A DNA stretch of 60,876 nucleotides, the filler included, from Basidiobolus ranarum (taxonomy: Eukaryota): assembly GCA_040143965.1 (NCBI GenBank). It is 3 parts of 3 records of this genome, joined end to end, with 100 filler letters (N's around TTAATTAATTAA, not from the genome) between each part and the next. Parts side by side here need not be neighbours in the genome. Positions count along the whole stretch, not along the records: positions 20,413 to 40,689 come from JASJQH010000232.1; 2 more parts are not named here. One strand, written 5' to 3'. A program made the translations under genes and the position numbers. Below the pieces are notes generated by a model, which saw nothing but the letters and a program-made list of their open reading frames with translations, had not been told where the DNA came from and made no database searches. Below, one piece after another: positions 3,425 to 56,089 of the stretch (positions within the stretch are counted from its first letter, which is position 1; the number at the start of each line of letters is the position of its first letter).

Positions 3425-6400
3425 TGTGGAAGAGAAGATTGGTATTAGACGGGGATTAAGAATGACAATTAGATAGGATAGTGGCGCCAGACGGCCTTAT
3501 AAATGCAGGAAAGAGCCAAATAAAGAAAGGAAGATTTTTATATTATTTAGTCACTTAAACCTGATCAACTATCAGTAACTGGAGGAGAATGCAAGATATG
3601 AGGAGTGAATCAACCACTAGACATGAGTGGAAAAGCTGACATTTCTGCATTTGAAACAGTGGAATGATCCTAGTTATATTAGTAGTCCATGATTCCCAAT
3701 GTCGTAAGAGTGATGATGCCTGGACAGAAACATCCTTTTACCTTCAGAATAATTATCCGGCCTATCCGATTTCAGTGGTATTCGGGAGATTGAATAGTGT
3801 TTCAAGTGATCATCATGGAGACCCCACACTGAATCATACCCTACATCGAAAATAAACAATCCATTAGATCTGGGGCATCCTGTCATTAGCAACGAGAGCG
3901 AAGTTAAGACAACACACTTTAGCATCTGGGCCAGTGATTAGTCAAGGATGCAAAGGTTGATACGATCTTTGGATGCTGGGGCGTGGACATGAAAACAATA
4001 TGGGTTGCTATGAATAAGCACATCGTAGTGCCTCTCCTCTTAACCAATTGATACATGGTAAACAGCGGGGTTCAGCCAATTATTAGTTGGTCCTGTTGCA
4101 AAGCTTACTAGATGCAATCAACGTGACTAGTTGACGATCTGGGCGATGAGTTGTCTTTCGTGGTAGGCGGATGTCGGTTTCGTTGCAGTAACAATCAGCG
4201 TCATCCGGTTGATCGTATCTATATCCAAGGTCTATATGGTGATATCAGTTGATTCATCCTTCCCGTAGCAGCATGATAGATGTGGGGAGATCAAACACCA
4301 TATCCGTGTGAAGCTTGGATCCTTCAGGTAATTTTATCAACAAGGATCCAAATCCAAATCGATGTGGTTAGAGGTGCCACTGTTTAACCTCACTAGCAAG
4401 AGGGGATCTTTGATGGGTGAGGATGCCGGGATTGGTAAAGCAATGAGTAGCGTTGTGCAGTGATCCCTTCTTGCCCCTATCCATAGAGTATCTATTGGCC
4501 TATAAATTCGCTTGCCCAATTGCTCGAATTACAAGTGATCACCCCCACAACAACATCAACCAATGGATATATAGTCCCGCTTGTGGTAGCCATTTACAGT
4601 CCTCTTCTAAAGAGGGTTGTTTCCAAACCTGTCTTGGAGCGTATTTCTCCAAATGTCTGGCTATATTAGCGAGTTACTCTCCCTCTTTGGAAAGTCACGT
4701 ACATACATACAACTACGGCAAACATAGGATCATGTGTGCTGAGTTTTCATTTAGAAATCATAAATTTGCAATATTAATTTAATTTCATCGTCCATGCTTT
4801 GGTTGGTAAATATAGGAAATATTGGTATGAACGATATAGCACTGGTTGGTTTCAGACATTTAGGACAATGTCAGGCAAGGCCGCTCTTGTAATACGTGTC
4901 AAAGTAAACCGGTACCTCATGTCAGAAATTTAACTTCAACAAGTGGGAACATCAATCCGTGAGATTTTACCATGTGAACGTCAAAGCTCTTGAGATGGAG
5001 TGAATATAATGCAGGGCATAGTTTGTCTCCAATGCTAATTACTCGCAGAAACATAGTGGTCATAACCCACCGCTTGGTATTATCTTTGAGATGGAGTGTT
5101 TGGGTATTTGCAATTAGCAGATAGGTACAAGCTAGGGAGATTCGCCTGTGTTTAAGCTTCAACCAAGTGGTGTTGTGATCTAGCCTATCATTCATCGTGT
5201 CTGGCAGCTGCACTATATGAATATATTCACTCAACAACCTTCACCAGAAAGAGCCATTATTAGTAGGGTCAATTTGATATTCCGCTAATTATAGTATATA
5301 TATCATGTTGAAGTAGGATCCTCCAATCCAAACAGTGATCATGTTATAGTCAAATGTGTATTTCTAGTTACTCCCTGAATTGGCAAATTCAAGCACGACC
5401 ATCTGAGTTAATTTGATGCTCGTCAACTCTCCCTTAGGTAATTATATGTATAAGGAGACCAAAGCGACGACCATATATCCGCCTATTAGCAAACTCATAT
5501 AGCTTTGAAACCAACACATAAACCTCTTAAATCGCTTCGATTGCAATATTCATTAACAGGCTTCAATATTATTAGACTTTGTTTCATGTGAAAGCTAGAT
5601 TAAATCTATATGAAGCGTTTTTACATTGCAACCTCAGACCTAGTTTAAGCATAAATGCCAACGCCTTCATAAAATTAACAAGTATGTATTGCTTTAGGAT
5701 TCGGTCCGACTTGCCTGGATAAACAAGTGCTCAAATCAATGTATCACTTGCCTGTCTACCTATTAATCGGAATTCTAGACAAACTGCAAAATACAGATTG
5801 AGTCAGGCTGATATGTCTCCCTTAGTACAATTGCTTTCCGGACGTAAACTGGTTATTGAAGCAGGAGACTCCGTTGCCTTTATGAAGAATAATTGGACTT
5901 ACGGCTGCATTAAACTATGGTATCGCTGGAGGCCTTGTACATTCAGCCATCGTTTACAGATATATACTGAAGGTTATTCCGCTCGGGGTATTTGTAAATA
6001 TCTAAAGTTTTGAAACCTCGCATAAAGTTGAGGCCAACCGCATCTCAAACCTGTTATTTCGCTTCTAGATAGGATAAAGAATATATTAAAATCATCGGCC
6101 TTAAGATCTCTACTCTAGTAACCTTTCCAGAGTTCATAGCGATGGAGTAGTTCAACCTTGCAAATCCACTCGCAAGATTAATCTCCACTTTATCTGAGTG
6201 TGCTAAAAAAGTAGGATCAAATTCAGAGGTATCCTTATAAATGCTATATACTTCAATTGCTCTAAATATTACTGTATTGCAAAGATACAAGTGACATCTT
6301 TCCTCCACCGCTCACAACCATTCACGTATCATATTCTTAAGATAAATGTCGAAAGTCAAAACAAATAGTAAAAATGGCCGATGCCTATCGTAATTCATTA

Positions 6401-9481: not shown

Positions 9482-11304
9482 TCATTTCTTTTTCGAGCTG
9501 TCAGAATTGGGGGTATCATCGGTAGACTCCTTCGCAGGCCCGGTGGAACTAGTACCAAATGGACGTCCTTTGTCTTCCTGTTCACGTACAAACTCCTCAA
9601 TCAATTCGCGTTGGTGAGGCGTGATGGATCTATTAGATACGTATGTTAGTAACGCTACTTTCATTTTAATAGATCACTACAGCCATGTCAATGCGAAAAG
9701 AAAACCTTACCTTGGAATCTCTACTTTGAGTTTGACATATTGATCACCATGTGCGTTCTTGTTAAGCTTCTTGATACCTCTGTTTCTTAAAATACTAACG
9801 TCCTCTGGCTGGGTACCGACTGGGATTTTAAGTTCAACATCGCCATCCAAAGTAGGTACTCGAATACTACCACCGAGAATAGCGGTATGCAACGGAACTT
9901 TGGCATCAATAAAAACGTTTGGTCCCTCGCGTCGGAATATACTGGATGGCTTGACCCGGAGTCTTACGAACAGATCACCAGCCGTACCCTTACCAGACAC
10001 TGGCATATCACCTTCGTTAGACAACCGAATTTTAACTCCTTCATCTACACCAGCCGGAATATTTACGTTGACAGTCTTAGGTTTCTTAACTCTACCGACA
10101 CCATTACAGGTAGGACATTGACTACCAGGTGGAATATTTTTACCAGTACCGGAACAAGAGTTACAGGTGCTCGCAATCATTCCAATCCCAATAGAATAAG
10201 TGGTCTGGCCAGTACCACCACATACTTTACAGGTTTCCTTCTTCTTACCACTCTTTAATCCCTCACCATGGCAAGGGTCACAAATACTGATCGGAGAGAT
10301 CGTGATTCGCTTGGTAACACCTTTAACGGCTTCCAAAAAGTCAATGGCCAAGTTGACCTGAACATCGTCACCAACTGTGAACTGATTAGCAGGATTACTT
10401 CTTCTACCAAATCCGCCACCAAACATTTGACTAAATATATCATCAGCATTAAAACCGCCAGGGAAACCACCACCACCAGGAAATCCGCCAGCACCTGGAG
10501 GTGCATTACCATTGAATGCAGCATGACCATATTGATCGTAAGCTGCACGTTTTTGCTCATCTGACAAAACCTATATTTACAATAGATTAAGGCATGAGTG
10601 ATAAGCTAATAGAATCGATTACCTAAACAAACTGTACCTCATAAGCCTCCTGTATTTTGACGAACTTTTCCTGGGCTGCTTTGTCTTTATTGGTATCAGG
10701 GTGATATTTTTTAGCAAGCTGAAAGAAAACAAAGTTCAAAAAAAATGGTGAGGTTAACTAACAATCCATCAAATTTCAAGAAGACTATAAATACCTTATA
10801 GTAAGCTTTCTTAATATCAGGCTGAGAAGCATTACGGGTTACACCGAGAAGCTCATACGCATCTTCTTTCATTTCCTGATTTGGAGCTATATAAAAACGT
10901 ACGTGTAAGTGATAATAGAAAACAGCAACCTTTGATAAGTATCGTACCGGTACTATGAAAATAACTCTGAAAATTGGTTAGAATATTGCATAATAAGCAT
11001 TGAACAGCATAGCATTAATTTTACCTTCTGATTAGCTATGTTAGGAATAGTACCAAAAGTAGAGGTAGCTTCTATTTCAGTAAGGATAGATTTGAACCGA
11101 AGTTTGTTAAAAATCGAAGTGAAGAATCTGCAAGTGAAACAATTAATTACCTCGAAGCATGGTTGCATTGATGGGTAAGCGTCTATTAGTAGGAACACTG
11201 GAACTGAGAATCGATAAACCTCTACTCGATAAACGGATGCATGTTTTAGTTTTGCGTGCACAAAACTGAGTAATGACTGGGAAAGTTGACTGAATTGAAT
11301 GCAT
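9482..11304 (-). CDS. MDJ1: Mitochondrial type I DnaJ co-chaperone, multi-exon
   Basis: Arg/Ser-rich presequence [10 protein letters not shown]..; J domain with KYHPD; G/F-rich region; four CxxCxGxG repeats; DnaJ C-terminal domain. Confidence 0.9.
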
Positions 11305-20312: not shown

Positions 20313-20412
20313 NNNNNNNNNNNNNNNNNNNNNNNNNNNNNNNNNNNNNNNNNNNNTTAATTAATTAANNNNNNNNNNNNNNNNNNNNNNNNNNNNNNNN
20401 NNNNNNNNNNNN
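20313..20412. other. Artificial contig spacer N44-TTAATTAATTAA-N44
   Basis: Exactly 100 nt with a six-frame stop linker in the middle; identical to 40690-40789. Confidence 0.97.
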
Positions 20413-20703
20413 TGTTTTTGATCATCCCAGGTTCAGTGATTGCTTGAAGTAGGGTTAGGGTTTATCCAAATTGAATTGCATAGCATGAAATCAGTTTATA
20501 AGTTTATGGGATACACGATTGCCCAAATCGGTGATTAAATGAATTCTATTTAAACATGTTATGAGTAGATTTCTTTTATACACGAAAAAAAAATCCACAT
20601 TTGAGCTGTATTTACTTCATTCGCGATGTCATTTCAAGCTACCTCACTGGACTCGTTCGTGTGACAATCTTTCCATATATTCCGCTTCTGCTTGAAAAAT
20701 AAA

Positions 20704-22116
20704 ATGACCGGTACCAACGAACAAGAAAAGAAGCAAATCAAACGTCCCAGAGGTTTGAAAAAGGCTTCTATGGCCAACAAGAAGGCCAAGGTAGAAGAGC
20801 CCGAGACCGACCTTAATGAAGAAGATATGACTTTGGTCATGGAAGGTGATGTAGACGAGGTTGAGGAACTCAGATTGATTTACGAAAGTGCTTGCGAGAA
20901 ATTAGCCGAGGATCAAGACAAGGGTAAGCTCCTCTTGAACGGTACTGTCCATGAAGCTGATCGTCTTTTACGTAACTGGGGAGAAGAGCCCGTACCAAGT
21001 AAATTCTATTTAACCTATGGTTCTGCTCTCTTCGACTTGAGCGAGTTACAAGACAAGCCTGAGGATGCCACCGAATACTTGAACATCGCCATCGAGCGTT
21101 TAGATTCTGCTCTCGAAAAAGCTAAAGAAGAAGGTAACGAGAAATTCTGGGAATTAAATTTTGTAGTAGGAAAAGCCTATTTGAGTAAGGTACCTTGACC
21201 ATCATACTTTATTTTAACTCTATTATTACCGTTATTTACCAAAGTTAACATTGAATATACTCAGGCACGTATCACTCGTGAAACTTCCAAGGAAGATGAT
21301 AGTGAGCTTGTGAAGAAAGCCTTAGAACACTTTGAGGTTGTATTTGACTCGATTCCAAAGGAAGATGAAGACGCTGAAGTATCTCGCAAGCTTAATGCTC
21401 TCAATGTCGCCGCTGAATTGATCCGTCTTTACACAGAAGTATACAATGATTGGGAGGAGAAAGAAAAGCTATACAAATGGGCTGAAGAGAAATTCACCAA
21501 CTTGCTTCAAGGTAAGTCCAAATCACTAATAGAAATCCTAAACTTAAGCTAACACCTATGATCCTGTTAGTCAATGAAAGTTACTTCCAAACCTTGGTTA
21601 GTCTCGGTGGCTGCTATTTGGCCATGGCAAATAGCCGACTTGAAAAACTTGATGATGACAAAGAAGAGGAGGAGGAAGATGAAGAAGAAACTCCCACTGA
21701 TGATTTGGCTAAAGAATATTTAGAGAAAGGTAAATAACCTTGGAGATGATGGAATATTTCATCAATTTCTAATCCTTCTTTGTCCTTTAGCTATTAAACA
21801 TCTTACCGCCGCTGAGAGTAGAATCGATGGTGGTGGCGTTGAAGTATCCAGACTCCTTACTTTGGTAAACTCAAGTTACATAGAAAAGTTTTTTATTGAT
21901 ACCACTTTAACGCAAAGTCTATTTCCTTAGCTTGGTGAAGCCCAAATTAACTTGGGTAACATGGAAGAAAATGAAGAAGCTCAGTACGCTCTATACCAAC
22001 AAGCTGTTGATAATTTGAAGAAGGCTAGCACTGTTGGTGGAGAAGACTTCGCACTTCCTGAACAGTTTGGAGACTTCTTGGAAGAATGGGAAAACGAATT
22101 ACAGGATGAAAACTAA
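20704..22116 (+). CDS. ETT1: Ett1/Nro1-like protein (enhancer of translation termination / Ofd1 regulator), multi-exon
   Basis: N-terminal KRPRGLKKA, LLLNGTVHEADRLLRN, FYLTYGSALFDL, acidic helical-repeat body, C-terminal LGEAQINLGN. Confidence 0.75.
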
Positions 22117-22377: not shown

Positions 22378-24200
22378 TTAAACGAAAGACTTGACGAACT
22401 CGGGAATGACAGTACGGAGCTTCTTCTCAGTAACTTCGGTGATTTGACCTTCATTCTTGATAGCATCGAGAATATCGGAGTGGTTAGCGGTCATATGAGG
22501 AAGGAAGTTGCTTTCGAATTCAACAATGCGCTTAACATCAACTTTGTCTAAGAAACCGTTGACACCAGCGAAGATAATGGCAACTTGTTGTTCAACTGGA
22601 AGAGGTCTGTATTGAGGTTGCTTCAACAATTCGGTGAGACGAGCACCACGGTTAAGTAAGAATTGAGTGGAAGCATCTAAATCAGAACCGAACTGGGCGA
22701 AGGCAGCAACTTCACGGTATTGGGCCAAGAAAAGTTTCAAGGAACCGGCAACTTGCTTCATAGCCTTGGTTTGAGCAGCGGAACCGACACGGGATACGGA
22801 AATACCGACGTTAATGGCAGGACGGATACCCTTGAAGAATAATTCAGCTTCCAAGAAAATTTGACCATCGGTAATGGAAATGACGTTGGTAGGAATATAG
22901 GCTGACACATCACCACCTTGGGTTTCAATGATGGGAAGGGCGGTCAAGGAACCGGAACCGAAGTTCTTGTTCATCTTAGCGGCACGTTCCAAAAGTCTGG
23001 AGTGAAGGTAGAAAACATCACCAGGGTAGGCCTCACGACCAGGAGGACGACGAAGCAAGAGAGACATTTGACGGTAAGCAACAGCTTGCTTGGACAAATC
23101 ATCGAAAACAATGAGGGCGTGCTTGCCGTTATCACGGAAGAATTCACCCATGGCACAACCAGAGTAAGGAGCCAAGAATTGAAGAGGAGCAGCTTCAGAA
23201 GCAGTGGCAGCAACAACAATAGAGTACTTCATGGCATCATTCTCTTCCAAAGTCTTGACGAATTGAGCAACAGTGGATCTCTTTTGGCCAATAGCGACAT
23301 AAACACAGTACAACTTCTTGGACTCATCAGTACCATCGTTCCACTTCTTTTGGTTAAGAATGGTATCGAGGGCAACAGCGGTCTTACCGGTTTGACGATC
23401 ACCAATAATCAACTCACGCTGACCACGACCGATGGGAAGCATAGAATCGATAGATTTCATACCAGTTTGCATAGGTTCGTGGACGGATTGACGGGGAATA
23501 ATACCGGGGGCCTTGACTTGAACACGTTGACGGACAGCATTGGGAATGGGACCCTTACCATCAATGGGGTTACCAAGGGCATCAACGACACGTCCAAGCA
23601 AACCTTCACCAGTAGGAACATCGACAATGTTACCGGTACGTTTGACGGTATCACCTTCCTTGATCAAACGATCGTTACCGAAAATAACGATACCAACGTT
23701 GTCAGGCTCCAAGTTAAGGGCCATACCCTGAACTCCAGAGGAGAACTCCACCATCTCATCGGCCTGGACGTTTTGAAGGCCGTAAACACGAGCAATACCA
23801 TCTCCAACGGAGAGGACACGACCGGTTTCGTTAATATCAGCAGCATCGGAAAGACCAAGGATACGTTCTTCGAGGATGGAAGAAACCTCGGAAGTAGCTA
23901 TACATAAACGTTAGATTATATTATAGGTGAGTGCATAATGGCAAAAGCTTACAAGGCTTGGCACCAGCAGTAGTTACAGAGCTGGAGGTAAAGAGTCTAG
24001 TGGCCATGGTAAGGGCACCAACATTGTGGCGAGCCTGTATTGGAAAGTGGTGAACTTTAGTATATAACTCCAGATACAAGTCTTCCGTATGCTCTTCCTC
24101 ATATATATAGAAACAGGAATAGTATAAAACTTACAACAGAAGCAACATTGCGAGCAATGGCTTGACGGGCAGCTACACGAAGAGCAGTATTTCTAAGCAT
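22378..24200 (-). CDS. ATP1: Mitochondrial F1 ATP synthase alpha subunit, 3 exons
   Basis: GDRQTGKT Walker [24 protein letters not shown]; presequence [22 protein letters not shown] in two short upstream exons. Confidence 0.98.
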
Positions 24201-24998: not shown

Positions 24999-26920
24999 AT
25001 GGCTGAAGTTGATGGAGGATGGAAATTTGCCCAATGTTTTGGTGACAAGGGTGATGTCGAAGACATCTCCGAAGGTATGTTGAGAGTTTCTGGTTGTAAC
25101 ATGATGCTCCCCCCTAAGATGTCACCTGCTTTGAAGTTATTTGATAAGCTTTACCTTAATATGTTAACTTGAGCTTCACCTCAACACATACCCCTATTTT
25201 TTTTACTTTCATCTTGTACCGCCAGTACTGTCTGTGAAGCCCTTTCTTTTGCTCAAACTAACTTATATCTCAATATATTGTAGTCGACATTATTTCTACT
25301 GTAGAATTCGACCACACTGGTGATTATCTTGCTACTGGTGACAGGGGAGGCAGAGTAGTGTTATTCGAGAGAAACGATGGAGTAGGTTTATTTCGGATCT
25401 TGTGCTTTCCCCTGAAATAATATTTAACCATTATTACCCATAGAAAAAGGGCTGCGAATATAAATTTCACACAGAATTTCAATCCCACGAACCCGAATTT
25501 GATTACTTGAAGAGTTTAGAAATTGAAGAAAGAATCAACAAGATCAGATGGTGCAAGCGCCAGAATTCGGCCCATTTCTTGCTCTCTACAAATGGTACGA
25601 ATTTGGTCGAGAGATCTTTGATAAGAGTTTTATTGAATTAATTGGAGCAGTATTAATGTATTTCAATGCCAATTCCAGATAAAACCATCAAATTATGGAA
25701 GGTTTTCGAAAAGTCCTTGAAGGTTGTTTCAGAAAAGAATCTCACCGACGGCCTGCCTCGACCACTTTTGAACACTAGTTCCTTGAAACTTCCTAAGCTT
25801 ACCCATCATGATACCATTGTTGCTGCAGTACCTAGAAAGGTGTATGCGAATGCTCACGCTTACCATATCAACTCCATCTCTATCAACTCGGATGGGGAGA
25901 CGTACCTTTCTGGAGATGACCTCAGAATTAATCTCTGGAACCTGAATATCAGCGATCAGAGCTTCAGTATCCTTTTTTACTTTGACACATATATTACGTT
26001 GTTGTGTAGCACTGTCGGTGGTTGTTTTCCTTAAGTCAATCCCAATAGATATTGTTGATATCAAGCCCGCCAATATGGAGGAGCTGACTGAGGTGATTAC
26101 TGCTTCAGAGTTTCATCCATCACATTGTAATGTCTTCATGTACAGCAGCAGTAAGGGAACTATCAAGCTATGTGACATGAGAGAGGCTGCCCTTTGTGAC
26201 CGTTATGCGAAGAGTATGAACACTATCCCAGCTATTCTCACGATGATGCATTGCAGAGTTCTAACCATCTTCCTTCTTTTCCTTTTGTTCAATGTTAATA
26301 GTGTTTGAGGAAGAGGAAGACCCCAGTAGTAGGTCCTTCTTCTCTGAAATTATCTCATCCATTTCGGATGTGAAGTTCAGTAATGACGGGCGCTACATTC
26401 TCTCCCGTGACTATCTTACCCTGAAGATTTGGGATATCAACATGGACAGTAAACCGGTAGAGACCATCAACGTGCACGATTATCTTCGTAGCAAGCTATG
26501 TGATCTTTACGAGAACGATTGCATCTTTGACAAGTTCGAGTGCAACATCAGTGGAGATGGAAAGTATCCTTTTTGTCGAATTATCATGCGATTTTCTATG
26601 TTATTTCTTGTTACATTGTCCTTAATTCACACTTGCTTAGCTCCATTCTCACCGGTTCATACAGTAATTACTTCAACATCTTTGATGTGAACAACAAGAG
26701 TGAGGTCACTTTACAAGCAGATAAGAGTGCCTTCAAGGCCAAACGTGTTGGTTCCACCAAGAACAAGTTGAGTTTTGGTCGCGGAGGCAAGAATGGCAAG
26801 AAGGAGGATATTAATCCTGATACCATGGACTTCAACAAGAAAATCCTTCATACCTCATGGCATCCAAGGGAAAATACGATTGCAGTTGCCGCAACCAACA
26901 ATCTTTTTATCTTCTCGTAA
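24999..26920 (+). CDS. CDC55: Protein phosphatase 2A regulatory subunit B55 (WD40), multi-exon with two U12-type introns
   Basis: [93 protein letters not shown]. Confidence 0.97.
25967..26048 (+). other. U12-type (minor spliceosome) GT-AG intron
   Basis: 5' splice site GTATCCTTTT; branch TTTTCCTTAAG at 26025-26035, about 14 nt from the AG; splicing restores SF-N-IVDIKP. Confidence 0.9.
26564..26640 (+). other. U12-type (minor spliceosome) GT-AG intron
   Basis: 5' splice site GTATCCTTTT; branch TGTCCTTAAT at 26617-26626, about 15 nt from the AG; splicing restores DG-N-SILTGSY. Confidence 0.9.
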
Positions 26921-28311
26921 GTTAACCTTTACTCTCACTCTCACTAATATTGCTGTGTACTCACTTTTCCAACCCAATCATCTCTGTTCTTAGGCAAGCA
27001 CATTAATCACGATGTTAATCTTTTGAAAATACTCTTGTTTTTTTACTCAAACATGTTTTCTTTCGAGGCTTCTTTTTCCTTCTATTTAATCACCATCTTA
27101 CACCTTTTCCGCTCCCTGTATGTTCTTGTTGATACTTCATAGAACAGAAATTTAACTTCCTTTTCTTTTTTTTCCACCTCTTATTCTACACACAAAATTT
27201 GTAAATGTTTGAAAGTTTATATGTTCTCTACTTACGATAACCCTATCTTTTATTTGTATACCGGTGTAATAAACATTAGATACAAATCGATAATGTAGTG
27301 ATTGAGGCTGGGACTGAAACTGGAGCTAGAGCCAGAGCTGTGACGTATATATAGTTCTTTTTTGCTCTCTTTGTATCTTCTATTCCTAAGCATGATCCAT
27401 TGGTGATTTCTTTAAAGATGTTTTCTACTCTTTCAAATGGTTGTGTTTCAATCGGGTTGTTTATTTGTAATATATATACATATATAGTCAGAAATTCATT
27501 AGACTTTGTAAAGGTAATCAAGCCACTTTTCGCCATGTCTTTCATAATAGGCTTGTTCAGTGTAGTAACCAAATCTACTTGAGAAGGCAAATTTTACCTA
27601 ACATTGATATGTGACAAGTACAGTAACTTGAGTACAGACAGAACACAACTAATGGATTTCATAACGCGTCAGTCATGACCACATTGAAGTTGTACAATTC
27701 ATATAGCATTATAGAGACAGGCCCTCTCTCCCCAAAACAAGTATTTTAATTAATACAACCAAGTTTGGTGACAACTATTTCAAACCATTCAGTCACATTA
27801 TTTTTAGATAAAATCAACAAAATCTTCCTAATCGTAATTCTGAGTTTAGCATACGAGGGAATTAACCAGCAATGATAAAATTGTTAAGAAATGAGTCTAC
27901 TTAGATCATGTTCGCTAAATGATTATATGCAAATTGAATCAAGTGTAAATGCGCTACATTAGTCACTCAATAATCGTATATATATTGTAGGCACTTCTTA
28001 ATAAATTGATTGATCTTCTTTTTACAAATCACTGCTAATTTCTAACAAAAATCACTAGATCAACCTGTGAAATCAGTATAGTGAATGTTGATCAACACAA
28101 TAAAGTTGTACTTGGTGAGTATCGTTTGATATAGAAGTCTGTCTCCAAATAAACGAGTATATCAAGGGGTTGGCTAACTCTAAAATGCTCTCAGTGAAAA
28201 TATGATAACTGTTCCAACGATCTAATGGTCATTCGTTTATTGAGCAGAACTTCAAAGGTTTGTTATTCAAAATGGCTCTGCCACAACATATTTGTTCTAC
28301 TCTCAGTATCA

Positions 28312-29455: not shown

Positions 29456-31980
29456 ATGAACGACTTGATTCCACTGGTGAATAAATTACAAGACGTTTTT
29501 AATACCGTCGGTAATGATCAGATTGATTTGCCACAAATTGTAGTCGTTGGGTACAGTTTTAAAGTTATCTCTAGATTGTATCTCATTTCATACTAATGTC
29601 AACCTTTTCTTCCCTTTTGACTTATTATTCTTGTCGAAAAATCACTATCATTGGAACAGCTCACAATCTTCGGGGAAATCTTCTGTATTAGAGAACATTG
29701 TTGGTAGAGACTTTTTACCTAGAGGAAGTGGAATTGTTACTCGACGTCCTTTGGTTTTTCAACTTGTAAACATACCTCAAGATTCTTTAACTCAAGAGTA
29801 CGCCGAGTTTCTACATATCCCTGATAAAAGATTTACCGACTTGAGAGATGTTCGTGCTGAAATCGAAAAAGAAACTTTGCGTATTGCTGGTTCCAATAAA
29901 GGCATCTCTAGAGTACCAATTCATTTGAAGATCTATTCTACTGAGGTTCTCAACTTGACTTTGGTTGACTTGCCTGGGCTAACTAAGGTATTGCTACGAA
30001 GAGCACTCTTATGCAAAGATATCCTACTAATCACTGCAATATATAGATTCCCATTGGTGATCAACCCACAGATATTGAAAAGCAAACCAGGCAATTAATA
30101 TTCGAATATATTGCCAAGCCCAATAGGTAAAGAAGCCCTGTAGCTAGTACAATACAGAATCATCATCTAATTCGCAGGTTACTTCTAAATTTAGTGTAAT
30201 ATTGGCTGTTAGTCCCGCCAATGTTGATATTGTAAATTCCGAAAGCTTAAAAGCAGCCAGAGAGGTAGATCCTGATGGTAAGAAACTGTGGTAATATATG
30301 TGGTTAAGTCGGATAGGTCACTGAGCATCATGAATATAGGCACACGCACTGTGGGTGTAATAACCAAAATCGATTTGATGGATGCCGGAACGAATGCCCT
30401 TGACATCTTAGCAGGCCGTGTTATCCATCTAAAACTGGGCTTTATAGGGGTTGTCAATAGAAGCCAACAGGACAATGTAGCCAACATAGCCATATCCAAG
30501 TCTCTCGAAAGAGAGTCGGAGTTTTTCAAATCCCATCCAGCATACAAAAATATAGCAGATAGATGCGGTACCGCGTATCTGGCCAAAACCCTTAATCACA
30601 TCCTAGTGAAGCACATCCGTGAAAAACTGCCTGACATGAAGACAAAACTCAACACCTTGATTGGCCAAACGCTACAGGAACTGAACACTTATGGCGATAC
30701 CTCTCTGTCACAAACCGCCAATCAAGGAGTGTTCGTTTTGAATTTACTTACTAAATTCTCCAATAGTTTTATATCATCCATCGATGGTACATCCCCCGAA
30801 TTCTCCACATCCGAGCTGTCTGGAGGGGCGCGTATTTATTATATTTTCAATAACATTTTCGGTGCTGCTTTGGATTCCATTAGTCCAGGAGGAAATCTTA
30901 CTTTACAAGACATCCGTACGGCTATTCGGAACTCGACCGGTCCTCGGGCGTCTCTCTTTGTTCCGGAGATTGCATTTGAGCTACTGGTTAAACCACAAAT
31001 CAAGCGCTTAGAGCATCCTAGTTTGCGTTGTGTCGAGCTCGCTTACGAGGAGCTCATCAAAATGTGCCACAATTCCAACGATAAGGTAAGATCTTTACAG
31101 TTATTGTAGTCATAAAGAGCGGATTCTAACACTTGGCCATTTATCTCCTAGGAATTCCGAAAATACCCCAAACTGTACGCCAAGATCATCGAGGTAGTAT
31201 CGGATTTACTCAGAGAAAGACTTGAACCGACCTCGAATTACGTGGAAAGCTTGATCAGTATTGAAATGGCTTACATTAACACCAACCATCCGGATTTTAT
31301 TGGTGGTAGTGGGGCTCTTGCAGCATTGGAACAGAAGACCCATAAGAAAAAAAGAGACCTGGAAAGACTGAAACGAGTAAGCGTCATGTTCCCGAGTCTT
31401 TCATCTCGCAACTCTCTAATTACATCTTGCTTACTAGACTAATCCGGCTCAGGTTACCGCCGTAGTGAACACAGTAAAGGAGGAAGAGGAGGTTGTTGGA
31501 GACAAAGGGAATACAGACAACGATAGATTCCTCAAGTATTTCTTTGGAAACAACAAAGAAAAATCGGAGGATGACACCCGAAAGCGATTCTCTGAGGATA
31601 TGGTTATGCCAGAGAAAATCAACCAGAGTAACTATCTGCAAGTCCAAGAGAACCCATTGACTCCTGAATCGGATGAAGAGAGAAATGATTTCTCGGAGCG
31701 TGAAGAAATGGAGACTCAACTGATCCGATCACTCATCACCTCTTACTTCAATATTGTCCGTAAATCCATTCAAGATCGCATACCTAAGACTATCATGCAC
31801 CTGTTAGTTAATCACATCAGAGAAAACATTCAAAACAGGTTGGTTTCCGAGCTCTACAGACAAGAAGCTTTCGAAGAATTATTGCAAGAGGATGAGAACA
31901 TCGTGGCTGAAAGGGATAAATGTAAAACCATGCTCGAGATTTACCGAAGAGCGTTTTCAATCATTAGCGAAGCTATCTAA
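29456..31980 (+). CDS. DNM1: Dynamin-related GTPase, mitochondrial fission type, multi-exon
   Basis: [41 protein letters not shown] (Dnm1-like rather than Vps1 GGARISFVF), C-terminal GED. Confidence 0.88.
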
Positions 31981-40689: not shown

Positions 40690-40789
40690 NNNNNNNNNNN
40701 NNNNNNNNNNNNNNNNNNNNNNNNNNNNNNNNNTTAATTAATTAANNNNNNNNNNNNNNNNNNNNNNNNNNNNNNNNNNNNNNNNNNNN
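40690..40789. other. Artificial contig spacer N44-TTAATTAATTAA-N44
   Basis: Same 100-nt structure as 20313-20412. Confidence 0.97.
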
Positions 40790-42530: not shown

Positions 42531-43097
42531 ATGGCTGTCTCCAAAAATCCATTTCGTAAAAATGGGAAAGAACCTCTGGGCGGGATCAACTGCTCCCAAA
42601 TTACTCGCTGGACTACCCTAACTCTGGGCAGGATATTCACTGATGATTCAAAGTCATTCACTAACCAAAGGATATTCACTGATGATTCAAAGTCATTCAC
42701 TAACCAAAGGATATTCACTGATGATTCAAAGTCATTCACTAACCCATTCAGGTGCATCATAAAGTGGGGCGAAGTAGAGCTTCTCCTGGAACGTATTCAG
42801 TTGCCACTGCCTACAATATTTCTAGGTGTTTACTATCTGGATGCTTTCAAACTCAGGTGCATTAAGTGTGACATACTTGAGAAATTGAATCTGGTTCATC
42901 ATCTTCTGCCACTTGGATTGATGATAGCCATGAAATTCCTGGATGATTCTCCTTATTCTACTCACTATTGGGCGACTTTAATGGGTTTAGAGATAGAGTT
43001 TGTGAAGGAGATCGAGAGGCGATTTCTATCCATCATTGAGTTCAAATTATACGTTACCAAAGAGCATCTTGAGCATTGGGTGAAGTTTTTAAAGTAG
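42531..43097 (+). CDS. Pho80/Pcl-type cyclin-like protein; N-terminal structure uncertain
   Basis: LPTIFLGVYYLD, LGLMIAMKFLDDSPYSTHYWA, EIERRFLSIIEFKLYVT; 42474-42529 looks like a 5' UTR intron. Confidence 0.75.
   Translation: MAVSKNPFRKNGKEPLGGINCSQITRWTTLTLGRIFTDDSKSFTNQRIFTDDSKSFTNQRIFTDDSKSFTNPFRCIIKWGEVELLLERIQLPLPTIFLGVYYLDAFKLRCIKCDILEKLNLVHHLLPLGLMIAMKFLDDSPYSTHYWATLMGLEIEFVKEIERRFLSIIEFKLYVTKEHLEHWVKFLK
42630..42744 (+). repeat. 39-bp exact tandem repeat, about 3 copies
   Basis: aggatattcactgatgattcaaagtcattcactaacc(aa) three times, reading RIFTDDSKSFTN(Q). Confidence 0.95.
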
Positions 43098-43230: not shown

Positions 43231-44740
43231 ATGGCCTCACTTGTTCGCATACTAAGAAATCCTCTATGGAAACAGCAACGACTAACTTTGCGTAGTTTTT
43301 CTTCGACTTCTGTACAGCCAGACAGACGTGGTTCAAGGGTAGAGCTTGGTATTGAAGTAGACCAAACTGAAGGTAGTCTAAACTTTTCCACAAAATAGAA
43401 CAGTCCTTTTTCTCCACTTTGAAGTGAAACACTACTAAGAATAAGAGATATTCTTGGTCACTTGTATAACCTAACAAACCACCGAAAACTTGCTCAAACA
43501 TATCAACTTTTAGAATGGAACGCATACAAAATCTCTCCCGAGCTCACTTTTCAAGAGGGTGACTTGGTATTGTTAAGAGACCGTGCTAAAGGCCTGAAAA
43601 CTTTAGTGGGTCCAATTACTGCTGAGGGTAAATCGTCTATTTGAAGATATATATATATATATATTAGGTTGTTAAGTATTTTTGAGTCTAATGGTTTGAA
43701 TTTTCTACTCGTAGGTAGTATTGGAAGTCATCGTGGACAGATCAAACATTCTCAAATTATTGGACAATTACCACGTACCGAAGTTAGAACGCACAAAGGA
43801 AAGCCATTTACCATTCATAAGCCTACTTTAGAAGAGTAAGTTATAAAGGGAGATTTTTTAAAGTAGTGTACTACTAAACACCATTATTTAGATTTGTCTT
43901 ATTAGCACCCAGACATGCTACCCCATCTTATCCAAAAGATTCGAATATGATGGTATATACTCAGAAATATCCTTCCCCCTTTTCAATAATCCAACTTTTC
44001 TAAATTCCCTTTTCAAGACCATGATGTTAGATGTATTCCCTGGAGCTAGAATCTTGGAAGCAGGCACCGGGAATGGTGGATTGACATTATTTTTGGCACG
44101 TAGCGCATGTATCAACACTTTAGAAGGTAAACCGGGAGTGATTGATACGATAGATATACGTGAAGAGCACTCAAGAAAGGCAAAGCAATTAATTTCTCGA
44201 TTTGAACGAGGCTACTATTCACAATTCATCAATTTCAATGTTGGTACCATTAGTCAATGTTTAACCGAAAATCCACCCACCGAACCCTATGATGGTATTG
44301 CACTTGATATGCCCGAACCTTGGGTAGAGTTACCTAATGCCTTGAAATGGCTTAAGAATGATCGATTCTTGGTTTGTTACATCCCGAATCTAACTCAAGT
44401 ACTACAACTATTGAGTACTGTAAGAAAACTCAAATACCCTTTGGCATTAGAGAATGTGCAAGAGATCAACCTTAGAGAGTGGGATATTAGACCTACTTAT
44501 TTAAAGTCTAAACGTCCAGCGGAGCAATCACCAGCCATCGATATATCCGTCACAGATTCCATCGATATACCCGACTCTGAAGCCACTCAATCCATCAATA
44601 TACCCGAGTCTGGAGTCATTCAACCCATCGCGGAAGTAGAACCATGGGTGTGCAGACCCACCCATGATCCTGCTGGACATACAGCATTCTTAGTAAAATT
44701 AAGAAAGTGTATTAATATTAAGGCTGAAGAATCCAGCTAA
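43231..44740 (+). CDS. tRNA (adenine-58-N1)-methyltransferase catalytic subunit, TRMT61B-like, probably mitochondrial, multi-exon
   Basis: Presequence MASLVRILRNPLWKQQRLTLRSFSS; FQEGDLVLLR, HKPTLEEF, ATPSYPKD, LEAGTGNGGLT, LDMPEPW, HTAFLVKL. Confidence 0.87.
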
Positions 44741-47221: not shown

Positions 47222-48897
47222 TTAAAGAATATAATCTCCATGGACGTCTATATCTCTTTTATGGAGACCCTTCATGGTTTGTTCATCACCACGGATCTGT
47301 GGGGCATTCTTTTTTAAGCTAGCAGTGATCTGATTCAAGTCTAATTGTAAATAGCTCCGAATAAACTCACCGATTTCTGTGTTCTCTCGATTACCAGCTA
47401 GCTGTTGAGAATTAGAACCATAAGCATATAGATTGACGTCTACTCCTGTGTGTCCATGGGTTGTCCATCCCAATTGTGCACGAAAATTGATCATTTCGGA
47501 CAAGTGGTGGCCATAATCAGCAGCTCCATGTTTGTTGACCAAGAAATCAAGCTCTTCTTTAGTAGCATCACTAATGCCCAGTTGTTCTTTAAGAATATTA
47601 ATGACAAACTCGGTTCTGTTCACTTGATCATACTGTGAGAGGACTTGACTCAAAGCATAAGATGAGCTCTTGCACTTCGAGATAACCTCAGGATACCAGA
47701 GATACTTAGGATAACTAGTAGTTACTTGGCGACCCACAGTGAACCCGCCAGTTTCGTGGTCACTGACCGAAATCATGACAGTTCCTGGGTGTGCATCAAC
47801 GTAACTTTTTACGGCGGCTACGGTGGCCTGGTAAGCAAGAATGTCATGAAGGTGGCCAACTGGATCATTATCGTGGGCTGCCATATCTATACGGCTACCT
47901 TCGACCATCAAAAAGAAACCCTTATCGCTACTTTCCGTAGCTTTGCTTAACACATCAAGTGCTTTTTGAGTCATTTCACTCAGGGAAGGCTGTACTTTTG
48001 GGTCGCGATCAATGTCGTAGGCCATGTGATCCAAAGCGAAAAGTCCCATCAAAGGGAGTGGTGAATCTACTTTTAAATCATCAAACTGTTTTCTAGATTG
48101 AACATATTCAAAACCACGTTTCTGAGCGTCTTGAATCAAGTTCTTTGTGTCCGGTCGACAACTTCCTTCAGTACTATTAGGTAAGAAAAAGCATCTTCCT
48201 CCTCCAAACATCAAGTCTACGCTAGGTCCTAATGTATAATCCCCTATTTGGTGCTCGGCAATAAGATGCTCTAAGTTACGATGCACCACGTGAGATGAGA
48301 ATGACGCTGGGGTGGCGTGTGTAATACGGCTAGTCACGACTAAACCAGTAAGCATCCCACTAACTTTGGCAGCCTCAAGAACTGTACCACAAGGCTCTTC
48401 TAATGGGTCGACACCGATAGCGTTGTTATATGTTTTCATGGCACAGGAAATGGCAGTAGCACCGGCTGCGGAGTCTGTTATCATACTCGAGTTGGATCTA
48501 GTTCTAGAAGCACCAACAAGGATGCTATCAAGAGGTGTCTGATATCCTATAGGAAGATCTTGGGACCACTGGTAGTAAAGGCGAGCGTACGTTTCGGAAG
48601 CAGGACCAAAGCCATCGGATATCATCATGATTACATTACGTTTCGGAGCAGCTAATAAGTAAGAATTGAATTAATACATTACTCAAGGTATAGAGGAGTC
48701 AGAGTGATAGCCCTACCTACAAACCGTGAGTGTATGAATACTGTAGAGCCTACGAGAACACTAAAAACAACCGCAAACCCCAGATAAATTAGAGGATTTC
48801 TTCGAATCGGACGGGAACCATTATGGATAAATTCCTCTCTTTCCTCTGGAGTGGAAGAGTTATTGACTGTGCTATAAGTCACTTTAGCTTTAGACAT
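47222..48897 (-). CDS. PHO8: Alkaline phosphatase, type II membrane (vacuolar), 2 exons
   Basis: N-terminal transmembrane helix; NVIMMISDGFGP, ITDSAAGATA, THATPASF, EGSRIDMAAHDND, SDHETGG, HGHTGVDV. Confidence 0.93.
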
Positions 48898-51706: not shown

Positions 51707-53514
51707 ATGTCCTTTCTTCGGATATCTAAGAACGCTACAGCTCTCTCAAAACTTTCCAAGAGCCATTTCTCTACTAGCTTAAGAATGTCTCAACAACCAG
51801 AGGGTCTTATCTTAGGTGTCTACAAGGACCTCAATCTTACTAATTCCGTCAAGGCTCTTGACGAGAAGGTACAGATCCAACTTACTGAGCAATTGAAGAA
51901 TTCCGGCGCTACCGGAAAGCTTGGTGAATTGAGAGTATTGTATGGTCTTGAGAATTTGCCCAAACAAGTAGCTGTTGTTGGTTTGGGTAAGGATGCCGAA
52001 GTTTCCGTAGCAGAGAACATGGAGAAAGCTCGTAAAGCTGTATATATGCCTTTACTATATTAAGAGCCTAATTGAGAAGTTATTAAACCCTTTTTCGTAC
52101 ACAGGCTGCTATTGGAGCTAGAGCACTTCGTGAACAAGGCGTCAAGACTATTGCGATCGACGCCATGAGTAGTCTCCAAGGTTTGTTTCCTACTTTTTAA
52201 AAATATACGCTTAACCTTTGGTACTAATATTTTTCATCGATCCAGGTGCTGCCGAAGGTTCTAAACTCGGTCTGTACAGCTTTAATGGCTTGAAGGCTCC
52301 CTCCTCCCGTAAACCCTTGGTGGAAGTAACTCCTTTTGAACAATCAGAACAAGAATCTTCTGCATGGAAGAGCGGACTTATTTTTTCAGAAGCTCAAAAC
52401 TTTGCTCGTATATTGGCTGAGACTCCTGCTAACCATATGACTCCTCGTTTGTTTGCTGATCAAGTCGCTAGCAAGTTATCTCCTTTGGAGAACGTGGAAG
52501 TTATTGTCAGAGATAGTGACTGGGCCGAAGAGATGAACATGGGAGCTTTCTTATCTGTTACTCGTGGTAGTGCTGCTCCCGCTAGATTTGTAGAGATTCA
52601 CTACAAGGGCGGAAAAGAGAATGAAAAGCCTTTGGCACTTGTTGGTAAAGGTGTAACCTTCGATAGTGGAGGTATCTCCATTAAGCCCTCCGCTAATATG
52701 CATCTTATGAAGGGTGACATGGGTGGTGCCGCTGCTGTCGCTGGTACCATGTTCGGTATTGCCAGTCTCCAGCTACCTGTAAATGTTATTGCCTGTATTC
52801 CCCTTTGTGAGAACATGCCTTCAGGTACAGCCACCAAGCCCGGTGATGTTATTACTGCGATGAACGGCAAAACTATTGAGGTATTAGTTGAATTCACTCC
52901 ATTCGCGCCTTTTAATATACTCACAATTTTAATCTTTGTAGGTTCTCAATACTGATGCTGAAGGTAGACTCATTTTGGCAGATGCCATTTATTACGCTAG
53001 TTCCACCTTCAAGCCTCACACTTTGATTGATGTTGCAACTTTGACCGGAGCCATGGTTATCGCTTTGGGCTCTGTTTTCTCTGGTGTTTTCACCAATTCC
53101 GACTCTCTTTGGAAGCAACTTGACAATGCTGGCCAAAACACCAGTGACGCTTTTTGGAGAATGCCACTCCACTCCGATTACTTGAAACTTATCAATGACT
53201 CTCCCGTTGCTGATTTGATGAATGTTGGTTCTCGCGCTGGAGGCTCATGCACCGCCGCCATCTTTTTACAGGAATTCGTTGCTGGTTTAGATGATGAAGA
53301 CATTGACGAATCGGAAAAAATTCGTTTTGCCCATATTGATATCGCTGGTACCATGGATAGTGGTAGTACCAATGGATACACTATCAAGGGAATGACTGGT
53401 ATGTATACATTACTAATTGACATCAGTGCTTGCCAAACTAACAAAATACTTTCTTTCAATCATATAGGTCGCCCCACTCGCTCCTTGATTGAATTTGCTA
53501 GAACCTTCCAATAA
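51707..53514 (+). CDS. Leucyl aminopeptidase, M17 family, multi-exon
   Basis: LVGKGVTFDSGGISIKP, MKGDMGGAA, NTDAEGRLILAD, DVATLTGA, AHIDIAG, GRPTRSLIEF. Confidence 0.95.
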
Positions 53515-53698: not shown

Positions 53699-55765
53699 TT
53701 AATGGTATTGCTTAATTAGAGCTGCCCAAACATGTGGATGTTGCCTCATGATAAAATTAATGGCATGTACTACTTCTTGAGGGGAACCGTGATTTTTCAA
53801 CTGTGTAATCAAGGTCTGACAAATCTTGACATCGGGGGCAACTCCATGTTCAGCCATCTCCTTAAAGAATACATTTTTCGCCTTGTCACTGTCTCCTATT
53901 CTAAACCAGGCCTCCATGAGAGAAGCAAAATGGTTACTATTTAACGGGTAACGACGTTTAACATAATCCCAGAAACTCGTTAAGAAATCGACATCAGATG
54001 CGAAACCACCAGAATCGAGGACCGAAGAGATATATGAAAGTTGTGCTTCTTTAGAGTAACCTTGTAATTGAATATGATTCCAAAGTTTCAATACGTCGTC
54101 GTGTCGTCTTAAGTAATTATAACATTTGAAGACAAGGGCGTAGATGTTACTATCTGGCTCTAAATTCCATTTCTTCAGCTGTTCGTAGTACTTCAGGGTT
54201 TGGTTGTAATTTTTCGAGCGAGAATGAAGTTCCATTAGTATTCGAATACTGTGAACGTTTGGTGGCACTCCGTTTTCAATCATCTCAAGGTAGAGCGAGT
54301 CGGCTAAGGTGGTCTTCTTTTGGCTACGACAAGCTCTGAGCAAACTGTAGTATATACTGGAATCAGGTTTGATTTGATAGCTTTGCATATCTTGGTACAA
54401 GTTCATGAGTGTATCAAAGGGTAGTTTGGTGTAGCCTTTACCAATCATAAGGTTGAACGTCTTGATGTTAGGTTGAATTTTGAATTGCTTCATTTGATTG
54501 TACAGCGATTGAGCTTGAGTAGCATCCTCTTCGATAGATCCGCGTATCAGGTTGTTGAGCAATACAACATCAGGTGTACATCCCTTGTTTACGCTATCGT
54601 TATACAATTCAACTGCCTTTCCCAACTGATTTTCATTGATATAAATGCTAGAGAGGATTTGGAGAGTAACGGCGTTGGGCTCTATGTTTCGTTCTACCAT
54701 CTCTTGATACATTTCCTTGGCCTCGTCCAAGCTGCTATGCTTCGCAGTAGCGTCAATCATTGCGGAGTATATGACAACGTTAGGCTCAACTTCATTGTCC
54801 AGCATGCTTTGAAGAATCTCCCTCATCTTTTGTATGTTGCCCTTCTTTGAATATAGAGAGATCAGCGAAGAATATGTAACTACATCTGGAATGACCTGAT
54901 GCTGGAGCATTTGCTCATAAATCTTTACTGCTTTAGATATCTCTTGTTTTTTGGTGTATAAATTAATTAGTGCGGTGAAGATACTAGCATCAGGTGTGAT
55001 ATCCTTTTCAACCATTTCATTATATAATTTTAAAGCGTGGTCGTATTTCTTTGTTTTGATATAAGCGGAGATCAATATCGAATATGTGTACAAATCCCAC
55101 TCGACAGAAGCCTCAGTCAAGTCAGCCATAACTCTGGAAAAAATATCAAGGTTACCGTGAACCTTAGAGGAGTGTAAAAGAATATTGTACGTAAAGATGC
55201 TAGGTTCAACTGATTCTTCTAGCATTCGTTCATATAAAGCAAAAGCTCTTTTACTATCAGTCTTTCCAACTAATTCGATATAATTATTGTAAATAAATCG
55301 ATTCAACGTCCAATTTCTCCGTTTTAACGCACAAATGACCTTTTCACACTCTTGAAGCATGCCAAGTTTGTTGAAAGCTCTAATCAGTCTACCATATTCC
55401 CAAATGCCATCCAGTTGAAAATTCGACTTGTCCAATTCCTCATAAAAGGCTCCCATTTTCTCTTTCCAAAATGGAGTAGGTTTCGATTGATTAAGAAGGG
55501 TTATAAGGTTCCCAGCTGCTTGTAAAGATTCTTGTTTGTTCTTTGAGGTGGTAAATAAGGTGAACTCTTCCGACCATTCTGAAGCTAAAGTGGTACTTTC
55601 GACTTTACTAACGAATTCTTGTTGTTGTGCTATGGAAGAAATATAGCGAACACGAAACGGACTCACTTGGTTATGAGAAAAAATGCACCGTCTCGAAAGT
55701 AAAAGGTTGTTACAGGGTGTCCGTGAATAAGTACCTCGAAGTCGTAGTATTTTTAAAAAAACCAT
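53699..55765 (-). CDS. Pentatricopeptide repeat protein, probably mitochondrial, intronless
   Basis: 688 aa with many 35-aa repeats (PSIFTYNILL, PDVVTYSSLI, PNVVIYSAMI); basic N-terminal presequence. Confidence 0.93.
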   Translation of the reverse strand: MVFLKILRLRGTYSRTPCNNLLLSRRCIFSHNQVSPFRVRYISSIAQQQEFVSKVESTTLASEWSEEFTLFTTSKNKQESLQAAGNLITLLNQSKPTPFWKEKMGAFYEELDKSNFQLDGIWEYGRLIRAFNKLGMLQECEKVICALKRRNWTLNRFIYNNYIELVGKTDSKRAFALYERMLEESVEPSIFTYNILLHSSKVHGNLDIFSRVMADLTEASVEWDLYTYSILISAYIKTKKYDHALKLYNEMVEKDITPDASIFTALINLYTKKQEISKAVKIYEQMLQHQVIPDVVTYSSLISLYSKKGNIQKMREILQSMLDNEVEPNVVIYSAMIDATAKHSSLDEAKEMYQEMVERNIEPNAVTLQILSSIYINENQLGKAVELYNDSVNKGCTPDVVLLNNLIRGSIEEDATQAQSLYNQMKQFKIQPNIKTFNLMIGKGYTKLPFDTLMNLYQDMQSYQIKPDSSIYYSLLRACRSQKKTTLADSLYLEMIENGVPPNVHSIRILMELHSRSKNYNQTLKYYEQLKKWNLEPDSNIYALVFKCYNYLRRHDDVLKLWNHIQLQGYSKEAQLSYISSVLDSGGFASDVDFLTSFWDYVKRRYPLNSNHFASLMEAWFRIGDSDKAKNVFFKEMAEHGVAPDVKICQTLITQLKNHGSPQEVVHAINFIMRQHPHVWAALIKQYH

Positions 55766-56089
55766 GGTCCACTAGAGTATTTAAAAAAAGAACACTACAA
55801 ACATTGGATAGTTATGTTATCTAACTGTAGACTACTTGGAGTAAAAAATTCTACCAAGCAATGATTTATTGCGTCTGTAGATTATTAAGATAACCATGGA
55901 TGGTAAATTGATTAACTATTCGATAATATAATCAAACTTCAAAGTGAAAATGGAACTTTATATAGTATTATATATATATGGCCTGGAATCAAGTTGGTCA
56001 AGAACAACAAATTACTTCACAACAGAGGATACAAAGTTGAACCCAAACATTGCTAATAAAGAATATAACATAGGACATGATGAGATAGG

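Follow-up and report, generated by a model that had tools for sequence, protein, structure and literature searches.

The locus considered here is the gene for the B55 (PR55/Cdc55) regulatory subunit of protein phosphatase 2A (PP2A) in Basidiobolus ranarum, the genus being one of early-diverging fungi. The coding part of the gene lies at positions 24999–27006, on the plus strand, of the window, by which we mean the whole stretch of DNA that was analysed (60,876 nucleotides). It consists of eight exons on that strand, at 24999–25074, 25284–25381, 25444–25594, 25679–25966, 26049–26213, 26302–26563, 26641–26916 and 26994–27006. The first seven exons were modelled by eye and from the reading frame; a short last intron was then added, because the last three residues of the public protein P0003 need it, and this brings the model to eight exons. 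When spliced, the gene encodes a protein of 442 amino acids that is identical to P0003 at 442 of 442 residues. The public name of P0003 is 'protein phosphatase 2A regulatory subunit cdc55 [Basidiobolus ranarum]', and it is colinear with the chains of human B55alpha in PP2A holoenzymes whose structures have been solved (E 8e-180, residues 3–439 corresponding to residues 3–443). It is 94–97% identical to other Basidiobolus B55 proteins and 78–84% identical to the named B55 proteins of other early-diverging fungal groups. The identity of the gene is thus well founded, both in the agreement over all 442 residues with P0003 and in the colinearity with human B55alpha, and an earlier note on this DNA, which had called the gene PP2A B55, was correct in doing so.

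The surroundings of the gene are unexceptional. Reading frames elsewhere in the window match ATP synthase alpha (22378–23910, minus strand), DnaJ (9707–10570, minus), dynamin (29544–31980, plus), a GCD14-type tRNA methyltransferase (43892–44740, plus), alkaline phosphatase (47222–48670, minus), an M17 aminopeptidase (52215–52955, plus), a PPR-repeat protein (53699–55771, minus) and Nro1 (20665–21198, plus). The neighbourhood is that of an ordinary nuclear gene, and there is no splicing factor among the matched frames. An Rfam search of the window gave no matches, and hence no snRNA. The window also contains four runs of exactly 44 N (20313–20356, 20369–20412, 40690–40733 and 40746–40789), which lie in close pairs, one pair about 20.4 kb from the other, and represent masked or gap sequence.

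Five of the introns of the B55 gene, all on the plus strand, are U2-like. These are intron 1 (25075–25283; 209 nt, phase 1), which has a GTATGT donor and a CTAAC branch; intron 2 (25382–25443; 62 nt, phase 0), with a GTAGGT donor; intron 3 (25595–25678; 84 nt, phase 1), with a GTACGA donor; intron 5 (26214–26301; 88 nt, phase 1), with a GTATGA donor and CTAAC upstream; and intron 7 (26917–26993; 77 nt, phase 2), which has a GTAAGT donor and precedes the 13-nt last coding exon. The earlier note had ascribed U2-like donors to the introns other than the two to which it drew attention and, within the B55 gene, this holds for all five of those remaining.

Introns 4 and 6 are the two candidates for U12-type introns of the GT-AG subtype. 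Intron 4 (25967–26048, plus strand) is 82 nt long and lies in phase 1, splitting the codon for N205, which corresponds to residue 213 of human B55alpha; intron 6 (26564–26640, plus strand) is 77 nt long and lies in phase 2, splitting the codon for N347, which corresponds to human residue 355. Both begin with GTATCCTTTT. The introns were scored by plain consensus match to the strings RTATCCTTT and TTCCTTRAY, as given in PMC8848931. The 5′ splice site is GTATCCTTT in each case (25967–25975 in intron 4 and 26564–26572 in intron 6, plus strand) and agrees with RTATCCTTT at nine of nine positions. The branch boxes, TTCCTTAAG in intron 4 (26027–26035, plus strand) and GTCCTTAAT in intron 6 (26618–26626, plus strand), each agree with TTCCTTRAY at eight of nine. 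In U12-type introns, the branch adenosine lies a short, fixed distance (roughly 10–20 nt) ahead of the 3′ splice site. The branch adenosines of intron 4, at 26033 and 26034, precede its 3′ end (26048) by 15 and 14 nt, and those of intron 6, at 26624 and 26625, precede its 3′ end (26640) by 16 and 15 nt. The two introns that the earlier note had picked out at these coordinates, from their common start and a TCCTTAA branch, are thus confirmed, with adenosines 14–16 nt before the end of the AG. Its reading of them as U12-type is likewise supported by donor (9/9), branch box (8/9) and spacing. U12-type introns are expected to lack a marked polypyrimidine tract, and such a lack is not evident here: at −23 to −4 the share of pyrimidines is 0.65 in intron 4 and 0.70 in intron 6, compared with 0.60–0.70 in the five U2-like introns of the gene.

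The placement of both junctions can be followed on the human protein. Exon 4 matches residues 117–212 of human B55alpha and exon 5 matches residues 214–267; exon 6 matches residues 269–352, together with two residues past the aligned stretch, and the second residue of exon 7 falls on residue 357. The alignment with human B55alpha is gap-free at both junctions. Minor introns are reported to be biased away from phase 0 (PMC10639083), and the phases of introns 4 and 6, being 1 and 2, match this bias.

It could be supposed that introns 4 and 6 are ordinary U2-type introns whose likeness to the U12 consensus has arisen by chance. The string GTATCCTT is not rare, occurring five times on the two strands of the 60.9-kb window where 2.29 copies are expected, and at least five copies were present in 9 of 100 shuffles, so that the donor motif by itself is unremarkable. 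GTAT-type donors are, moreover, common in the B55 gene (GTATGT and GTATGA). The full textbook branch string, TCCTTAAC, has three copies in the window, none of which is inside intron 4 or intron 6. A combined pattern was defined as RTATCCTT, followed within 25–300 nt by TCCTTRA and then, 8–18 nt later, by AG or AC; on both strands of the window it matches introns 4 and 6 only. This pattern is a loose one, with a mean of 0.264 matches in 500 dinucleotide shuffles and at least two matches in 12 of the 500. Chance is nevertheless to be discounted because both sites are the true intron ends of one gene, fixed independently by the protein frame and by the colinearity. A donor matching at nine of nine positions, and a branch box matching at eight of nine and lying at the right distance, are found in two real introns, whereas neither is found in the other five. 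Added to this is the same donor implied in a paralogue (P0010; see below), and the 237–249 introns of this kind that have been reported for the genus (PMC10639083, PMC11347168). We regard a chance likeness as very improbable.

Several other sites carrying these motifs were considered as introns and rejected. The GTATCCTT sites at 6229 and 33607 on the plus strand have no adjacent coding frame, and the minus-strand site at 23857–23864 falls within the frame that codes for ATP synthase alpha. Apart from introns 4 and 6, no GTATCCTT or ATATCCTT site in the window is accompanied by a suitably placed branch box and acceptor, and those that were checked lie in an exon or are without flanking coding sequence. 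A 21-base string (catcagtga ATATCCTTTGGT) occurs twice on the minus strand, at 42675 and 42714; the two copies are 39 bases apart and hence constitute a short tandem repeat. As an AT-AC intron this string was rejected, there being no branch box downstream.

The best reading of the sequence is that the Basidiobolus B55 gene has, in introns 4 and 6, two genuine minor-class introns of the U12-type GT-AG subtype, and we would put the probability of this at about 0.85. The sequence itself shows the U12-type motifs at the spacing given above, phases other than 0, and junctions that fit a conserved protein exactly. If the established model of minor splicing applies, the U11 snRNA would pair with the GTATCCTTT donor and the U12 snRNA with the TCCTTAA branch box, one adenosine being bulged; U4atac/U6atac.U5 would then catalyse removal of the intron, and the AG would be picked by its short, fixed distance (14–16 nt) from the branch. 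The working minor spliceosome that the earlier note proposed for this fungus has indirect support, from published data on the sister species B. meristosporus.

Basidiobolus meristosporus has featured in two recent surveys of minor introns. Larue and Roy (2023), who asked for at least two minor snRNAs as part of the evidence for presence, reported 249 putative minor introns in this species (0.554%), the highest density found in fungi; in Ascomycota and Basidiomycota they found none that was convincing (PMC10639083). Olthof et al. (2024) reported 237 minor introns (0.5%) in B. meristosporus together with genes for U11, U12 and U6atac, and in their survey basal fungi yielded several genes for minor snRNAs (PMC11347168). 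The likeness between those introns and the present ones is one of genus and of intron class, and the closest B55 protein of B. meristosporus (P0004) is 97% identical to P0003; the difference is that the minor snRNA genes are those reported in B. meristosporus, whereas the protein encoded in the window is that of B. ranarum. The B55 gene is not mentioned by name in the main texts of the two surveys, which leave the lists of individual introns to supplements and web databases (PMC10639083, PMC11347168). [quoted passage not shown]

A different possibility is that, despite their minor-type signals, introns 4 and 6 are spliced out by non-canonical or mixed machinery, either without a standard U4atac or with help from the major spliceosome, in which case they would not be strictly U12-dependent. 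In several fungal species from the lineages Zoopagomycota and Mucoromycota, Olthof et al. list high-confidence U11, U12 and U6atac but no U4atac; B. meristosporus has the same three and no high-confidence U4atac, and a non-canonical spliceosome is discussed (PMC11347168). Against this, the same paper describes a putative, divergent U4atac in B. meristosporus that is detected only at a lowered threshold (PMC11347168), and nothing in the window favours a non-canonical machinery. As regards a mixed machinery, the U2 snRNP contributes to the splicing of some mouse minor introns (PMC8848931), and the regions preceding the AG in introns 4 and 6 are as pyrimidine-rich as those of the U2-like introns. 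The branch boxes of introns 4 and 6 are, however, near-consensus, and in mouse it is boxes of this kind that are least U2-dependent (PMC8848931). On balance, we consider removal by such machinery to be unlikely.

There is also evidence concerning the donors at the same two positions in other organisms. Short predicted proteins are often single exons that have been read into the following intron until a stop codon is reached, and their tails therefore spell the donor. The donor type elsewhere was deduced in this way from two to four read-through residues per fragment, using the best 120 of 668 fragments for exon 4 and the best 120 of 769 for exon 6; being the best matches, these sets lean towards fungi that are close to the query. 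All 120 exon-4 fragments (of the 668) end their conserved part at position 205 and have S as the next residue, which is what A|GT encodes. The residues that follow are U2-like in 118 of the 120, mostly E, K, A, T, Q, R or M, and in the other two the tail is SIL, as would come from GTATCCTT. Of the two SIL fragments, one matches the B55 protein of Diversispora eburnea, which we take to be a glomeromycete, with 100% identity over 96 residues, and the other matches it with 96% identity over 83. At position 347, 50 of the 120 exon-6 fragments (the best of 769) end immediately beyond the split codon, the outcome to be expected of GTAA, GTGA or GTAG donors, and 67 diverge there with U2-like pairs such as CV, YV, SV and YA. 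The donors are thus U2-like in 117 of 120, and the three others comprise one fragment with the U12-like tail EYPF, one that is continuous and one without an anchor.

The fragments were assigned to groups by their best BLAST hit to 76 named proteins. Those with U2-like donors fall near what are presumably Basidiomycota, Mortierellomycota, Mucoromycota, chytrids and Blastocladiomycota. A search of representatives produced one further U12-like tail, in P0474 and, among the fragments examined, U12-like donors elsewhere are confined to the two Glomeromycota-like fragments and a few that are unplaced. When the other exon ends of all the collected proteins were inspected, U12-like read-through was found only in P0010 and P0474, together with one chance match, and in no vertebrate-like sequence. 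Both intron positions are common to other fungi and to animal-like sequences. Invertebrate-like fragments have U2-like donors at the second position (...NDR|YV); vertebrate-like models break off at both positions, and in vertebrate-like sequences exon boundaries fall at human residues 213 and 355.

A metagenome scan, from which 80 B55 loci were kept, gave only loci that are continuous at residues 205 and 347, being cDNA-like or intron-poor. Some of these, which are genomic loci of other fungi (L025, L032–L034, L037–L039, L041–L044 and L049), are interrupted near residues 57/58, without introns at 205 or 347, and at least L032, L034, L037 and L044 are also interrupted near 25/26; 25/26 and 57/58 are the positions of B55 introns 1 and 2. 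In L053 and L060 the match is broken for about 250 nt at query residues 361–367, just downstream of the second U12 position, either by an intron elsewhere or by an insertion.

The distribution of the two positions bears on the question of whether introns 4 and 6 are old or were gained recently as copies of a mobile intron-like element. Their lengths are alike (82 and 77 nt), and their first 11 bases are identical. Past the splice motifs, however, their interiors do not align, and neither folds better than its shuffles (z = −0.73 for intron 4 and −0.12 for intron 6). Introns are, moreover, present at position 205 in 120 of 120, and at position 347 in 118 of 120, of the best-matching fragments, which come from other fungi and animal-like sequences. 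Because introns 4 and 6 have only their splice motifs in common, they are not copies of one element, and a recent origin of this kind, which the shared positions contradict, is scarcely credible.

From the sequences compared, the likeliest history is that Basidiobolus has kept old minor introns at both positions and the Glomeromycota have done so at position 205, conversion to the major type having taken place elsewhere. The direction assumed, minor to major, follows from a general argument that conversion runs this way (PMC10639083). Rhizophagus irregularis, and with it the Glomeromycota, resembles Basidiobolus in representing an early-diverging lineage with many minor introns, 205 being reported (PMC10639083). 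The Diversispora-like fragments (n = 2, with three read-through residues each) imply a GTATCCTT-type donor at the position of intron 4. In the B55 sequences that are like those of Basidiomycota, Mortierellomycota, Mucoromycota and chytrids, the positions and phases are identical to those of introns 4 and 6, whereas the donors are of the GTAAG, GTGAG, GTATG or GTGCG kind, and we infer that conversion has occurred in these.

The situation in animals is of interest in this context. Baumgartner et al. (2019) described the human PP2A B55 family as consisting 100% of minor-intron genes, and suggested a link with the control of proliferation (PMC6865273); Jacquier et al. (2022) assayed the minor introns of mouse Ppp2r2b, Ppp2r2c and Ppp2r2d (PMC8848931). 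The statement in the earlier note that animal PPP2R2 genes carry minor introns is thus supported by both papers. The earlier note had proposed that minor splicing could be rate-limiting for B55; in Rhizophagus, Larue and Roy saw no link between minor splicing and proliferation (PMC10639083). What these sources say of B55 minor introns in animals and plants takes the form of family-level statements that do not give intron positions. The likeness of the Basidiobolus gene to animal PPP2R2A–D is therefore that of a gene family with minor introns (PMC6865273, PMC8848931), along with the vertebrate-like exon boundaries at human residues 213 and 355; the difference lies in the invertebrate-like fragments with their U2-like donors at the second position. 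It is possible, if rather doubtful, that both B55 introns predate the split between fungi and animals, occupying the same positions as the minor introns of animal PPP2R2, and that most fungal lineages independently rewrote them to the major type as the minor spliceosome was lost.

Two public gene models from the genus appear to be damaged at these introns. P0010, a B. ranarum paralogue of 352 amino acids, ends ...GDGKYPFSS, which is the read-through of AA|GTATCCTTT (compare positions 26560–26575 of the window) and so implies the same donor at the same place in the paralogue. The model was probably cut off by a gene caller that missed the U12-type intron. P0007, a B. meristosporus protein of 427 amino acids, is missing 15 residues just before the first U12-type junction by comparison with exon 4 of the window, and this gap looks like a mis-set splice site near the minor intron. 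Comparison at the B55 locus also brings to light public gene models with damage at minor introns.

It is already known that Basidiobolus has minor introns and that animal B55 genes have them too; to this picture the introns described here add a clean, well-anchored example. One short gene records type conversion at two sites, the introns carrying U12-type signals in Basidiobolus, and probably in Glomeromycota, and U2-type signals in most of the other fungi sampled. If the two introns do predate the divergence of fungi and animals, B55 would provide a compact, two-intron natural series for the conversion of minor to major introns, and Basidiobolus would be a fungus in which to test the control, by minor splicing, of the PP2A-B55 mitotic-exit phosphatase.
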